From Candidatus Giovannonibacteria bacterium (lineage in GTDB: Bacteria > Patescibacteriota > Minisyncoccia > JACPKW01 > UBA11713): a stretch of 64,000 nucleotides of DNA. The stretch covers positions 66,025 through 130,024 of the forward strand of contig JACPKW010000005.1 in the NCBI GenBank assembly GCA_016186825.1. Direction: 5' to 3'. The position numbers and the translations under genes were made by a program. Shown one piece after another: positions 13,284 through 43,221 of this stretch. How positions within the stretch are numbered: the first letter of the stretch is position 1; each line of letters starts with the position of its first letter. The notes under the pieces are model-generated. The model ran no database searches. It was not told where the DNA came from and was given only the letters and a program-made list of their open reading frames with translations.

Positions 13284-13415
13284 CCCCGTTAGAAAATTCT
13301 TTTCTAACGGGGGTTCATTTCTCGCCAAAGCGTCCCGCCGTGGCGGGACGCGGAGCGAAGCCCAGCCCCGCTTGTAGCGGGGCTGGGCGACCTGCCTGCC
13401 GGCAAGGCAGGGCGA
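13284..13415. repeat. Cluster of four strong GC-rich hairpins, including the CCTGCCTGCCGGCAAGGCAGG member of a dispersed palindromic repeat family
   Basis: Perfect 13-bp hairpin CCCCGTTAGAAAA/TTTTCTAACGGGG. Also CGTCCCGCC-GTG-GCGGGACG, CCCAGCCCCGC-TTGTA-GCGGGGCTGGG and CCTGCCTGCCGGCAAGGCAGG. The last of these recurs at 56900-57030. Confidence 0.55.
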
Positions 13416-13440
13416 ACCCTCTCGTCTTCAAAAAATGAGT

Positions 13441-13660
13441 TCGTATCTAGTTTCTTGGCTCCATACCCTGAACGAAATCCGAACGCATTTTCAGGAAACC
13501 TCCGACGAATGAAGCCGCCCCGCCGCCGCTCGCTAACGCTCGCCAGCCAGCAAAAAAGTTTTCTCTGCATTTCTGATTTTGCGCGCGCCGGATTTCTCCC
13601 CCCAACCCCCTCCTGCCGAGCCGTCCTCACGGTTGGCGGTGGCGTTTATTTCTAAATTAT
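13441..13660. repeat. Left terminal inverted repeat (~200 bp) of the cassette; outer terminus TGGCTCCATACCCTGAACG
   Basis: Its reverse complement matches 19010-19265 almost exactly, apart from an ~85-nt insertion in the right copy. Confidence 0.8.
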
Positions 13661-19479: not shown

Positions 19480-21000
19480 ATGAAATACTTTTTATACATC
19501 AGAAAATCAACGGACGAGGACGACAGACAAGTTTTGTCGCTGGAAGCGCAGGAAACGGAATTGAAAGAATTTGCCTTGCGGGAAAATCTTTTGATCGCCG
19601 CGACTTTCCGCGAATCGCAGACCGCCAAAGAGCCGGGCAGACCGATTTTTAACGATATGCTCAAACGAATGGAGCGCGGCGAGGCCGAGGGGATTTTAGC
19701 GTGGCATCCAGACCGATTGGCGAGAAACAGCATAGACGGCGGACGGATTATTTTCTTGGTAGACACTGAAAAAATCAGATCGCTAAAATCCCCGACATTT
19801 TGGTTTGAGCCGACCCCGCAAGGCAAATTCATGCTCAATATCGCTTTTGGGCAATCCAAATACTTTGTGGATAATCTTTCAGTGAATACCAAAAGAGGGT
19901 TGCGTCAAAAATTGCGCCGAGGCGAATTGCCCGGCTATGCGCCGCTTGGCTATTTGAACGACTTGCTAAAACACACAATCTACAAAGACCCCGAACGTTT
20001 TCGCCTCGTCCGCAAACTTTTTGAACTTTACGCAACCGGAAATTATTCTCTGAAAGATTTGCGGAAGTTGATAACTTCCGCCGGCTTGTTGAGCCGCAAA
20101 GGAAATATGCTTTCCGTCTCCAATATCCAAAATATACTCTCTACTTCATTTTATTATGGCGTATTCAAATACAATGGCGAACTCTACGACGGAAAGCATG
20201 AGCCAATGATTGCAAAGAAACTTTTTGAAGCGTGCCAAAAAGTGATGGCGGATCGTTCGCGCCCGAAAAAGCCGAGCCAAAAGGAATATCCGTTTAGAAA
20301 CTTGCTCAAGTGCGGCGAGTGCGGGTGCGCTATCACTTCCGAAACGCAAAAAGGACATAACTACTACCGCTGTACCAAAAAGAAAGACAAGCAATGTTCG
20401 CAAAAATATATCCGCGAGGAAGTTTTGGCACGCCAGATTTCGGACGAGATTCAAAAAGTTTCTTTGCCTCCCGCTTGGGCGGAGTGGATGTTAGCAGAAC
20501 TCAACAAGGAAGAAGCAGAAGCCGCCCAAGCGGGCGCCGTTTTCGCTCAAAATCTCAAAAACAAAATAAAAGAGCTTGAAGGAAAGCTCGACCTGCTTTT
20601 AGATGCACATTTAGCCAGCACTATTTCGCGCGAGGAATACACCGCCAAAAAAGAGAAATTGATAATTGAAAAGGCCGAGCTTTCCGAAAAATTGAAGGAT
20701 TTTGAGCGAAACGGCAATCATTGGCTCGAACCGGCCCGGCAATTCATTTTAGCGGCTCAACAAGCCAAAATTATCGCTTTGCAAGAAAATCCCGTCACGG
20801 GACGGGATTTTCTAAAAAGAATTGGCTCGAACCACGTTTTGCGCTCGCAAGCGATTTGCTTTGAACCCAAAAAGTCGTGGAAAATTCTTGCTGATGTGCC
20901 CGCCGAGGGGCGAAGCCCCGAGGCGGTGAACTCGTATCATACAATTTGGCTCCCCGGGCAGGATTCGAACCTGCGACCCACTCCTTACACTTATCCCTAA
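19480..21000 (+). CDS. Large serine recombinase (resolvase/invertase catalytic domain, recombinase domain, zinc ribbon and coiled-coil). The last ~40 codons read through the right IR and the tRNA 3' exon.
   Basis: YIRKSTDEDDRQ catalytic Ser motif. CGECGCAITSETQKGHNYYRC zinc ribbon. The ORF end overlaps 20878-20952 and tRNA 20947-20987. Confidence 0.85.
   Translation: MKYFLYIRKSTDEDDRQVLSLEAQETELKEFALRENLLIAATFRESQTAKEPGRPIFNDMLKRMERGEAEGILAWHPDRLARNSIDGGRIIFLVDTEKIRSLKSPTFWFEPTPQGKFMLNIAFGQSKYFVDNLSVNTKRGLRQKLRRGELPGYAPLGYLNDLLKHTIYKDPERFRLVRKLFELYATGNYSLKDLRKLITSAGLLSRKGNMLSVSNIQNILSTSFYYGVFKYNGELYDGKHEPMIAKKLFEACQKVMADRSRPKKPSQKEYPFRNLLKCGECGCAITSETQKGHNYYRCTKKKDKQCSQKYIREEVLARQISDEIQKVSLPPAWAEWMLAELNKEEAEAAQAGAVFAQNLKNKIKELEGKLDLLLDAHLASTISREEYTAKKEKLIIEKAELSEKLKDFERNGNHWLEPARQFILAAQQAKIIALQENPVTGRDFLKRIGSNHVLRSQAICFEPKKSWKILADVPAEGRSPEAVNSYHTIWLPGQDSNLRPTPYTYP
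20878..20952. repeat. 75-bp inverted repeat, right copy. It overlaps the 3' end of the intron-containing tRNA.
   Basis: Reverse complement of 19258-19332. Confidence 0.85.
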
Positions 21001-21271
21001 GTTTCCTTGGGGGGTGGACTATATCATCATCCCTGTTTTTGGATGCGAGGCGCTTCGACCGTCGCTTGTGACGGGCTACTCTCTTTCGAGATAGTCTCTG
21101 AACCTTCCTTCATCTTGCTTCGCAATCCGAAGCTTTAGCGAAAGATTGGCTGCGGATTACCTTAGAAAAATTCTTTAGGCTTCCCGCAATTCACCTCGTT
21201 TTTCAACCGGAATTACTTCCGGAAGCTGCCATTTTTGACAGGGAGTCGCTCTACCGCTGAGCTACCGGGGA
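20947..21271 (-). tRNA. tRNA, best read as Asn(GUU), interrupted by a ~250-nt group I-like intron in the anticodon loop. Exons 21238-21271 and 20947-20987; intron 20988-21237; CCA encoded. Asp(GUC) is the alternative if the boundaries are shifted.
   Basis: 5' exon TCCCCGGTAGCTCAGCGGTAGAGCGACTCCCTGT. 3' exon TAAGGAGTGGGTCGCAGGTTCGAATCCTGCCCGGGGAGCCA, giving a perfect cloverleaf. The intron follows a U and ends in G, and contains P7-like CAGAGACTA ... ATATAGTCC elements. Confidence 0.65.
20988..21237 (-). other. Putative group I self-splicing intron within the tRNA anticodon loop (no ORF)
   Basis: Lies between anticodon positions 35 and 36. Contains GACUA/UAGUC P7-like motifs. Boundaries are a 5' U and a terminal G. 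Confidence 0.5.
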
Positions 21272-21389
21272 ATATCTGCTGATATTATAACTTTCTGATT
21301 CCGTTTTCAACATTTCAGCTCAAAATTGCTCTGAAATTTGCTTTCATATAGAATAAAAAGATAAAAAATTAGCTCTGTTAAACGCATAT

Positions 21390-42360: not shown

Positions 42361-42660
42361 AATCCAAACTCATAAAGCTGTCTGATCGATTTTGAAGCCA
42401 ATCAATGCGGAGATAAAAAGAAATATAACCGCATAAATTGCGAGCGGCGGAATAAGTAATGTTTTCAAATTCATAGTTTTAAATTTTATTTAATTCTTCG
42501 ACATTTACGATCTACACAAAGAGAAAATGCACTTTCGGGCATCTCTCTTATCACTTGGCTGTGTGTATTGGACAAAATTCAAAACTATTTCGGACAAAAT
42601 CCTGCGGATTTTGCCCGAAATACATTCGAACTTCGTCCGTTTCTTCTGATTCCGAATTTT

Positions 42661-42682
42661 GGCGGAGGGGGCGAGATTCGAA
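42661..42682. repeat. Direct-repeat copy of the tRNA-Ser 3' end (GGCGGAGGGGGCGAGATTCGAA), 127 bp downstream of the gene
   Basis: Matches 42788-42808 at 21 of 22 positions. The copy encodes CCA; the gene does not. Confidence 0.7.
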
Positions 42683-42788
42683 TTTCCTCCTTCGGAAATT
42701 ACGGGGAAGTCCCCCGGACTTCCCTTCGAACTCGCCTTTCAACAATGATGCCAAATTTCAATATCAAAAGATATTAAATTTGTCATAG

Positions 42789-42875
42789 CGGAGGGGGCGA
42801 GATTCGAACTCGCGATGCGGTTTCCCGCATACTTGCTTTCCAAGCAAGCGCACTAGACCACTATGCGACCCCTCC
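42789..42875 (-). tRNA. tRNA-Ser(GGA), type II with long variable arm; CCA not encoded
   Basis: GGAGGGG-TC-GCAT-AGTGGTCTA-GTGC-G-CTTGC-TTGGAAA-GCAAG-TATGCGGGAAACCGCATC-GCGAG-TTCGAAT-CTCGC-CCCCTCC-G forms a full cloverleaf. Confidence 0.8.
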
Positions 42876-43124
42876 AGTATCCAGTAATTTTTTAAAGGCT
42901 TCCCCACCTTTATAGCTTTTTATTTGCTTTTCTCTAAGCCACGCACTTTTTTTATGTGAAAAATACTCTTTATAGATCAGTTTCCAAGGTCTGCCACTCC
43001 TCGTAGATTTATTGGCTCCAGAATTATGATGGTTTACACGATCAAAAATATTAGAAGTAAAACCTACATAATATTTTTTATTCAGTTGACTCTGCAAAAT
43101 ATAAACAGCAAACATATTGACCAC
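42861..43124 (-). CDS. GIY-YIG nuclease-superfamily protein (UPF0213/YhbQ-like, 87 aa)
   Basis: YILQSQLNKKYYVGFTSNIFDRVNHHNSG GIY-YIG motif. Bracketed by 14-bp direct repeats TATGCGACCCCTCC (42862-42875 and 43160-43173). Confidence 0.7.
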   Translation of the reverse strand: MVNMFAVYILQSQLNKKYYVGFTSNIFDRVNHHNSGANKSTRSGRPWKLIYKEYFSHKKSAWLREKQIKSYKGGEAFKKLLDTGGVA

Positions 43125-43221
43125 CCACCGCTTTCAGCGGGGTCCCGCCAAAGGCGGTGATATGCGACCCCTCCGGATAGCCTAAATAGTAGCAAATTAT
43201 TGCGTCGAGTAAAGTTTTTAT

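Follow-up and report, generated by a model that had tools for sequence, protein, structure and literature searches.

What kind of element leaves a tRNA gene with both of its ends duplicated and a small nuclease gene lying between the copies? Integrases and group I introns are well known to settle in tRNA genes. The case considered here is the tRNA-Ser(GGA) gene found in a 64,000-nucleotide stretch of a Candidatus Giovannonibacteria contig (JACPKW010000005.1, positions 66,025 to 130,024). This whole stretch is referred to below as the window, and all coordinates are counted from its first nucleotide. The tRNA gene lies on the minus strand at 42788/9-42875 (ARAGORN and Rfam, with 59 bits for the Rfam tRNA model). 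The reading that we favour, with a probability of roughly 0.6, is that the locus is a selfish, homing-endonuclease-like cassette belonging to a widespread family that dwells in tRNA genes and duplicates them by way of break repair. The known kind to which it would then belong is that of free-standing GIY-YIG homing-type genes tied to tRNA genes, and it may be more than this if the hairpin module that accompanies the gene is an independent mobile or RNA component.

Anatomy of the tRNA-Ser(GGA) locus

All of the features described here lie on the minus strand, and they are followed in the direction of the tRNA. Directly past the native upstream flank stands an outer 5' fragment, a copy of tRNA-Ser nt 1-14 (GGAGGGGTCGCATA; 43161-43174). 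It is one of two exact copies of a 14-nt repeat, TATGCGACCCCTCC, the other being the 5' end of the intact gene (42862-42875), and the two matches were obtained in 0/100 shuffles of the window. The sequence-only reading had found this repeat on both sides of the ORF, with the second copy placed one position off. The “GC hairpin block” that it saw past that copy is present, and is a two-hairpin module of 36 nt (TCACCGCC-TTT-GGCGGGA CCCCGC-TGAAA-GCGGTGG; 43125-43160) that separates nt 14 of the pseudo-tRNA from nt 15. Direct reading of the sequence shows nt 15-20 (GTGGTC; 43119-43124) resuming past the module, followed by AAT ATG, and the module is therefore a clean insertion in the D loop of the pseudo-copy, with no target duplication. 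It is the sole double-hairpin module within the 64-kb window. Most homologous loci carry an equivalent 5' copy 55-120 nt upstream of the ORF, and the pattern in which the tRNA resumes past the module is also present among them.

The ATG at 43115 is the start of the deposited gene form, which encodes an 84-aa GIY-YIG nuclease consisting of the catalytic domain only (42861-43115; Pfam PF01541, E 7e-16) and is 100% identical to a Candidatus Giovannonibacteria protein. A GIY-YIG ORF between the 5' copies had been recognised from the letters alone, but with its start at 43124, where a GTG coincides with tRNA nt 15-17 of the pseudo-copy; this 87-aa GTG-start form has no match among deposited proteins. 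At its other end the ORF runs into the intact tRNA gene, as its last four codons and stop (GGA GGG GTC GCA TAG) are tRNA nt 1-15, the TAG itself being nt 13-15. The intact “inner” tRNA-Ser(GGA) (42788-42875; ARAGORN, Rfam and flank comparison) has no encoded CCA, reading ...G-C-TAT, and its 3' flank is non-native. A 51-nt spacer follows (42737-42787), which is foreign by comparison with the empty loci described below and which contains an AT-rich hairpin (arms 42748-42758 and 42776-42786).

Beyond the spacer lies a second pseudo-copy, made up of the 5' T-stem strand and the first half of the T loop (GGCGAGTTCGAA, tRNA nt 62-73; 42725-42736), a 42-nt two-hairpin insertion in the T loop (GGGAAGTCC-GGG-GGACTTCCC and ATTTCC-GAAG-GAGGAAA; 42683-42724, from RNA folding), and an outer 3' fragment that begins in the T loop and includes the 3' end and an encoded CCA (TTCGAATCTCGCCCCCTCCGCCA; 42660-42682). 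In the predicted fold of the insertion region, two hairpins are enclosed by the T stem (-36.2 kcal/mol, z -2.6), and analogous T-loop insertions occur in six homologous loci (L031, L045, L057, L046, L075 and L055). The “tRNA-like hairpins” previously ascribed to the spacer are real hairpins, but they are this insertion in the T loop of the pseudo-copy. The outer 3' fragment and the intact gene share an exact repeat, GCGGAGGGGGCGAGATTCGAA (42662-42682 and 42788-42808; two matches in 0/100 window shuffles), which on the tRNA strand begins with the first T of the T loop and ends one base past the discriminator. The repeat had been given as 22 nt with a spacing of 127, where we find 21 nt and 126; that the downstream copy encodes CCA holds (...CCCCTCC-G-CCA on the tRNA strand, with the CCA at 42662-42660).

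The flanks show which of the two 3' ends is native. The outer 3' fragment is followed by CCAAAATTCGGAAT, which is the tRNA flank in the empty orthologous locus L091. Both the fragment and its flank (CCGCCAAAATTCGGAAT) agree with the native end of the tRNA gene in that locus and what follows it, to which the 3' flank of the inner tRNA is unrelated. With native CCA and native flank both retained by the outer 3' piece, it is the ORF together with the intact tRNA that was inserted. The sequence-only reading had the polarity the other way round: the native end is that of the outer copy, with its CCA, and the intact tRNA arrived with the insertion. A terminator-like hairpin with a T tail, 38 nt past the outer 3' fragment (42586-42622; -25.9 kcal/mol, z -5.4), has a near-identical counterpart downstream in L009 and is probably the native tRNA terminator. 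The outer tRNA survives as pieces around the ORF and the intact inner tRNA. No sigma-70-like promoter was found near the locus in a promoter scan with a sigma-70 model that is uninformative for a CPR genome; the ORF is probably co-transcribed with the intact tRNA from the native tRNA promoter.

The outer pieces do not have the form of an interrupted tRNA exon pair. Nt 21-61 are absent from the pseudo-tRNA halves, Rfam at E<=10 gives only tRNA at this locus and no ribozyme, and the combination of a ribozyme or splicing motif with two complete exon halves that would mark a tRNA intron is lacking. Group I introns of bacterial tRNA anticodon loops, whether or not they carry homing endonuclease genes, are comparable in being selfish insertions in tRNA loops that keep the tRNA functional, but here there is no ribozyme and function is kept by duplication, not splicing. 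A group I intron is present in a tRNA-Asp elsewhere in the window.

The protein belongs to the GIY-YIG superfamily by both fold and residues. The AlphaFold model (pLDDT 89) has the GIY-YIG fold plus one extra C-terminal helix, and Y5, Y16, G18, R26 and E62, which include the GIY and YIG tyrosines, the arginine and the catalytic glutamate, are invariant among 34 homologues; judged by its sequence, the catalytic core is intact. Catalytic domain and helix fill the 84 aa, with no DNA-binding module. As a small stand-alone domain closer to UPF0213 and Slx1 than to the Tev and Seg enzymes, it falls in the UPF0213/SLX1-like (URI) branch. The top structural matches in Foldseek are UPF0213 protein BH0048 (1ZG2) and the Slx1 nuclease domain, with the I-TevI catalytic domain lower; phmmer against the PDB gives 1ZG2 at E 3.8e-4 and Slx1 at 0.02-0.05, and the NCBIfam model for group-I-intron endonucleases scores 19 bits against a cutoff of 56. 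Size, fold and catalytic residues agree with the best matches among UPF0213/YhbQ and Slx1 proteins (1ZG2 and 1YWL, with 4XLG, 7CQ3 and 7CQ4 for Slx1), but sequence similarity is weak (E ~4e-4, 28% identity) and the cassette subfamily has a conserved C-terminal motif of its own, IKSYKGGEAFKKLI. We found no report in which UPF0213, YhbQ or Slx1 proteins are associated with tRNA loci, with duplicated tRNAs or with hairpin modules.

Empty, filled and relic sites

The position of tRNA-Ser(GGA) downstream of GroES-GroEL-LemA-HtpX is conserved in Giovannonibacteria, and orthologous loci could be found by way of HtpX, which is ~80% identical among the genera compared; these are different species from that of the window. 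Four of the sites are empty, with a clean tRNA, no ORF and no fragments (L090, L091, L094 and L095). Two are filled, one being the site in the window, with the 84-aa ORF family studied here, and the other L093, whose GIY-YIG ORF is only 38% identical to that of the window. The L093 ORF is preceded by GGAG and a hairpin and ends with GGFA-stop inside the tRNA; L093 and the empty L091 come from the same metagenome and have an identical tRNA. A seventh site, L092, is a relic that retains 13 nt of the tRNA 5' end, one hairpin and the last ~17 codons of an L093-type ORF beside an intact tRNA. No empty allele was found in the window's very species in this comparison of orthologous sites.

Presence/absence polymorphism together with degenerate copies at a defined target is the pattern of a homing gene, and the comparison of orthologous tRNA-Ser loci supports the suggestion, first made from the sequence alone, of a homing-endonuclease-like selfish insertion tied to duplicated tRNA termini. 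The adjacent genes were less useful for synteny. The neighbouring 648-aa protein led to only one distant homologue, in a rearranged locus (L084), and no close relatives were found through the UMP-kinase-like gene. L084 has no GIY-YIG ORF; as it carries nested and duplicated tRNA-Ser pieces of its own, we do not count it as a clean empty site.

The same sites bear on a host-gene interpretation, in which the ORF is a repair or structure-specific nuclease of the YhbQ/UPF0213 kind expressed from tRNA operons, and the tRNA fragments arise as by-products when highly transcribed genes undergo slippage or recombination. The structural proximity to UPF0213 and Slx1 instead of the classical homing enzymes would suit such a gene, as would strong purifying selection with most copies intact, and a family of very large size. 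Empty, filled and relic states at one orthologous site argue against it, however, as do the two ORF subfamilies, 38% identical, that occupy this site. So do the occurrence of the ORF beside many different tRNA species, its tandem arrays and frame-shifted copies, and the dedicated hairpin module that travels with it, all of which are seen in the wider family. We consider the host-gene interpretation quite improbable.

The ORF family and its hairpin module across phyla

Close homologues of the ORF number in the hundreds, are ~80-85 aa long and are mostly from Patescibacteria, and a profile search returns 5,239 clusters at E<=1e-10. The family is thus a large one, with thousands of clusters at 50% identity, found in CPR bacteria, Bacteroidota, Ignavibacteria and Omnitrophota. 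Mean column identity among homologues is 57% and most ORFs are intact. The mostly intact, strongly conserved ORFs fit frequent re-invasion and also fit a host-beneficial function. Many homologues end with G-[GE]-[VF]-A-stop, which is the tRNA 5' end read in frame.

A sample of 80 homologous loci was taken from species-representative genomes of Patescibacteria, Bacteroidota, Ignavibacteria, Omnitrophota and other phyla. In 68/80 the ORF is directly adjoined by an intact tRNA gene on its own strand; the other 12 mostly have tRNA fragments or a contig break. The adjacent tRNAs are mostly Ser, with all four anticodons, and also Tyr, Pro, Glu, Lys, Gly, Gln and Asp; ORF clades track the tRNA type (Ser, Tyr, Pro, Glu) with a few switches. 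As in the window, the TAG formed by tRNA nt 13-15 serves as the stop of the ORF in 18 loci. Of the 68 loci with an abutting tRNA, 63 also have fragments of that tRNA in the flanks of the ORF (2995 nt aligned, 98.9% identity). Where the acceptor stems of outer and inner copies differ (L004, L026, L028 and L042), the sequence of the outer 5' piece is complementary to that of the outer 3' piece in every case (4/4). The recurrence of this layout beside tRNA genes in many phyla points to a widespread family of tRNA-targeting selfish elements. A full-text literature search found no prior description of the ORF-tRNA-hairpin arrangement, and the family is apparently undescribed so far.

A tmRNA-like or giant-tRNA structure, in which the outer pieces would form an acceptor stem and T arm around the ORF, was considered and rejected as the main reading. 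Neither Rfam nor ARAGORN detects a tmRNA, the identity elements are missing, and L026 has upstream and downstream pseudo-copies with some content in common.

At least nine other loci have a T loop-to-3'-end copy, often with CCA, 105-190 nt downstream of the intact tRNA. Since the duplication recurs with the ORF family, it belongs to the hairpin-interrupted pseudo-tRNA and to the same architecture. The sequence-only reading had instead taken the 3' duplicate for the footprint of a decayed or excised integrative element. In that account the 21-nt duplicate is an attR-type remnant of a separate integrase element that used the T loop-to-3'-end segment as attB, has shrunk to ~105 nt and is unrelated to the GIY-YIG gene. 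In its favour, this segment is a classic crossover block for tRNA-integrating elements, with which the repeat coincides exactly; it is the native copy that has been displaced, as integrations of this kind would predict; and the same genome has a serine-recombinase gene that overlaps another tRNA. However, only 105 nt lie between the copies of the direct repeat, and the genes neighbouring the tRNA-Ser locus encode housekeeping and membrane proteins, with no recombinase domain among them. The recurrence in at least nine unrelated loci would require independent decay to one small size in many lineages, which is implausible, and the hairpin module of the upstream copy is found again in the downstream copy in L046 and L026. 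An integrase footprint is therefore very improbable. Integrase elements in tRNA genes nevertheless share with the cassette that an essential tRNA is hit, that replacement tRNA sequence is supplied and that a native fragment is left as a direct repeat. They differ from it in that the cassette has no integrase, duplicates both 5' and 3' sequences, supplies a whole tRNA, leaves the native gene in pieces and measures only ~0.3-0.5 kb.

Loci of Bacteroidota and of some further phyla have the reverse order, with an intact tRNA and its 3' flank followed by the ORF, a pseudo-tRNA and a second copy of the 3' flank; here the pseudo-tRNA carries hairpins in, or in place of, its D, anticodon, variable or T regions. 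Tandem arrays with a period of ~360 nt are also found in Bacteroidota, in which tRNA-Pro, the ORF and a hairpin-bearing pseudo-tRNA (tRNA*) are repeated and the 3' flanks are duplicated too; frame-shifted ORF copies exist. A single Campbell-type crossover of a circle of ~360 bp would fit the Bacteroidota layout and the 5' side of the CPR loci, but was rejected, as it does not fit the native 3' flank on the outer piece in the window. Comparison of L051 with L075 shows a tRNA substitution specific to one lineage that recurs in the neighbouring tRNA*, which points to ongoing gene conversion.

CCGC-N3-7-GCGG hairpins adjoin the ORF in 73/80 loci, at a density of 3.9 per kb by the ORF against 0.14 per kb elsewhere in the loci (28-fold). 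The consensus of the CPR-type module is CCACCGCC-loop-GGCGGGG-T-CCCGCC-loop-GGCGGGA, a pattern that can also be written CCACCGC-N-GCGGGGTYCCGCC-N-GGCGG. In upstream pseudo-copies it is inserted, with no target duplication, past nt 14, past nt 21-23 or, most often, past nt 36, in the anticodon, and in L046 an identical module is found in the anticodon loop and in the T loop of tandem pseudo-tRNA units. The module of the window has the opposite orientation to the family majority, its reverse complement being 91-97% identical to the modules of L070 and L006.

Proposed break repair, possible RNA partners and related elements

SegB of phages T4 and T6 is a free-standing GIY-YIG homing endonuclease encoded in a phage tRNA gene cluster (PMC2330249, PMC13096335). 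In phage T6 it cuts inside tRNA genes at the T-arm motif RAWTSGAAC, the complement of the T arm, and drives the recombination-dependent co-inheritance and tandem amplification of tRNA together with segB (PMC13096335); SegB homologues are statistically enriched beside tRNAs (PMC2330249, PMC13096335). The cassette resembles this system in that a GIY-YIG gene is embedded among tRNA genes, and its 3' duplications begin inside the T loop. It differs in that SegB is phage-borne and has ~220 aa including a DNA-binding part, whereas here an 84-aa catalytic domain is encoded in cellular genomes and fused to the tRNA 5' end, and in the hairpin-interrupted tRNA pseudo-copies, which are not described for SegB. 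A tblastn search of a phage collection (50,697 records) gave 14 weak hits, of 36-44% identity and E no better than 3e-5, in Rhizobium and Staphylococcus phages and unclassified phage records; neither SegB nor any T4- or T6-like phage is among them, and the search thus gives no sign of relatedness to SegB.

By analogy with SegB, the 84-aa nuclease would break tRNA-gene DNA, and recombinational repair from a cassette-bearing copy, with the tRNA sequence serving as homology, would copy the ORF and tRNA into the broken gene, producing partial or complete, tandem or nested tRNA duplications. Redundant tRNA copies would then gather the element's hairpin modules in their loops and decay, while the essential nature of the tRNA would keep one copy intact. 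In the window, the original host gene would have been left as two outer pieces, namely the module-interrupted nt 1-20 and the hairpin-interrupted T arm-CCA segment with its native flank and terminator. Such a model, if the analogy holds, would explain the T-loop duplication boundaries, the arrays, the variety of layouts and the empty, filled and relic states. Two points tell against it: a protein with no DNA-binding domain leaves site specificity without an explanation, and since the intact inner tRNA keeps any target internal to the tRNA, so does self-immunity.

The conserved hairpin module, moreover, has no role under a plain homing model. The protein might bind the hairpins, as DNA or as RNA; alternatively, they might confer immunity by destroying targets in the loops, or stabilise the cassette by breaking up homology. 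A further possibility is that tRNA* is a functional RNA partner of the nuclease, in which the hairpins bind the protein and base-pairing of the tRNA segments to the tRNA gene or its transcript makes the RNA a guide, scaffold, decoy or antitoxin, giving the nuclease specificity for the adjacent tRNA. The CCGCC-loop-GGCGG hairpin type is kept from CPR to Bacteroidota while the tRNA segments vary with the neighbouring tRNA, and stem variants keep their pairing (CCGCA..TGCGG, CCGCAT..ATGCGG, TGCGCC..GGCGCA). The tRNA* is always on the ORF strand, its segments are ~99% identical to the adjacent tRNA, and the protein changes little when an ORF lineage moves to another tRNA type. Yet this identity could equally come from gene conversion or recent insertion, 84 aa is far below the size of any known RNA-guided nuclease, the tRNA* pieces vary from 4 to 66 nt and lie upstream or downstream of the ORF, and the module is found in both orientations. 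We regard an RNA partner as distinctly unlikely, and the more general proposal that a hairpin-bearing tRNA* transcript guides or scaffolds the nuclease as unlikely.

The ~35-nt two-hairpin module may also resemble the palindrome-associated miniature elements derived from IS200/IS605, in that it enters cleanly, with no target duplication, where a folded strand is unpaired (the tRNA loops). Those miniature elements are hairpin-ended and make no target duplication. The cassette differs in having no HUH transposase, and a GIY-YIG hydrolase alone is incapable of strand transfer. Module and domain-only nuclease might together form a new mobile system, which would recognise folded tRNA-gene strands or act via the tRNA* transcript as guide or scaffold, with the module inserting or homing into the D, anticodon and T loops of redundant copies and the tRNA segments programming which tRNA gene is targeted; we think this unlikely.

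To return to the homing-type cassette, it would add a third and very compact strategy to those known for elements in tRNA genes, with ~0.3-0.5 kb, one 84-aa protein, and a tRNA that is duplicated rather than spliced or restored at one end. It would also be a cellular counterpart to the tRNA gene amplification recently shown to be driven by SegB in phages, and it raises the questions of how a domain-only nuclease finds tRNA genes and of what the conserved hairpin module does. The cassette has practical consequences as well. Gene finders call the tRNA pseudo-copies as tRNAs, which affects annotation, tRNA-copy counts and the interpretation of tRNA arrays. It also breaks metagenome assemblies at tRNA loci: many contigs end at the cassette, including Logan contigs of the source organism.

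A second occupied tRNA gene in the window

The tRNA-Ser(GGA) gene is not the only one in the window to be held by a selfish element. In the tRNA-Asp(GTC) gene (window 20944-21331, minus strand), a group I intron (Rfam RF00028, 89 bits) interrupts the sequence 3' of the anticodon loop, with the 5' half of the tRNA at approximately 21271-21235 and the 3' half, which includes CCA, at approximately 20984-20947, both on the minus strand. A large serine recombinase ORF of 506 aa (19480-21000), carried on the plus strand, overlaps this 3' half, a sign that an element may have integrated at tRNA-Asp(GTC). At least two tRNA genes of the Giovannonibacteria genome therefore hold different selfish elements.

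Effects of the cassette on assembly and tRNA annotation

The contigs of L001, L002 and L092, and of 11 of the 80 homologous GIY-YIG loci fetched (e.g. L010, L015, L025, L040, L041, L053, L054, L060, L063, L064 and L081), end no more than about 130 nt past the GIY-YIG ORF or within the adjoining tRNA. Short-read assemblies are evidently broken by the cassette, via repeats or population heterogeneity, and MAGs therefore probably understate how frequent it is.

Pseudo-tRNA copies can form tandem arrays. In the Omnitrophota locus L046 (DAOPYQ010000002.1, 2842-3260), at least 2.5 tandem 159-nt units of a 5'-truncated pseudo-tRNA lie downstream (3') of an intact tRNA-Ser(TGA), and each unit contains the double-hairpin module twice, in the anticodon loop and in the T loop. 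In three loci from Bacteroidales (L058, L052 and L037), hairpin-bearing pseudo-copies with GCCCCGCCGTTGGCGGGGT in place of the D loop are called as tRNA-Pro genes by ARAGORN, and the tRNA gene counts of genomes such as these are likely to be inflated.

Possible relics and variants of the cassette

A nested arrangement in which the GIY-YIG ORF is absent is seen in L084 (GCA_964395285.1, CAYNAP010000015.1, 7300-7620). Two sequence types of tRNA-Ser meet here: the intact tRNA-Ser(GGA) belongs to one, and the fragments that bracket it belong to the other, nucleotides 1-35 on the 5' side and the anticodon loop to the 3' end on the 3' side. The duplication extends to the short 5' leaders and 3' trailers. 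This locus may be a cassette from which the ORF has disappeared, or may record a tRNA replacement event. The best-scoring family members in the search of representatives, P0243 (214 aa) and P0244 (205 aa), each have two matched stretches. They are probably either partially duplicated ORFs or fusions that arose by read-through between cassette copies in tandem.

Elsewhere in the window, 13290-13640 is a non-coding, GC-rich stretch, dense in hairpins, in a genome of approximately 40% GC. Within it, TCCCGCCGTGGCGGGA and GCCCCGCTTGTAGCGGGGC are hairpins of the type seen in the module that adjoins the GIY-YIG gene. On either side of them stands GGGGGTTCA...GAACCCTC, possibly a T arm carrying a large insertion. 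Rfam gave no match for this stretch, which may be a further tRNA-derived relic or else an unknown RNA.

After the outer tRNA 3' end, a long terminator-like hairpin (42586-42638) is 98% identical across 44 nt to one that follows the Candidatus Tyrphobacter cassette on its downstream side (L009, 2637-2692). This shared hairpin either belongs to the element or is the native terminator of tRNA-Ser, conserved between the two.
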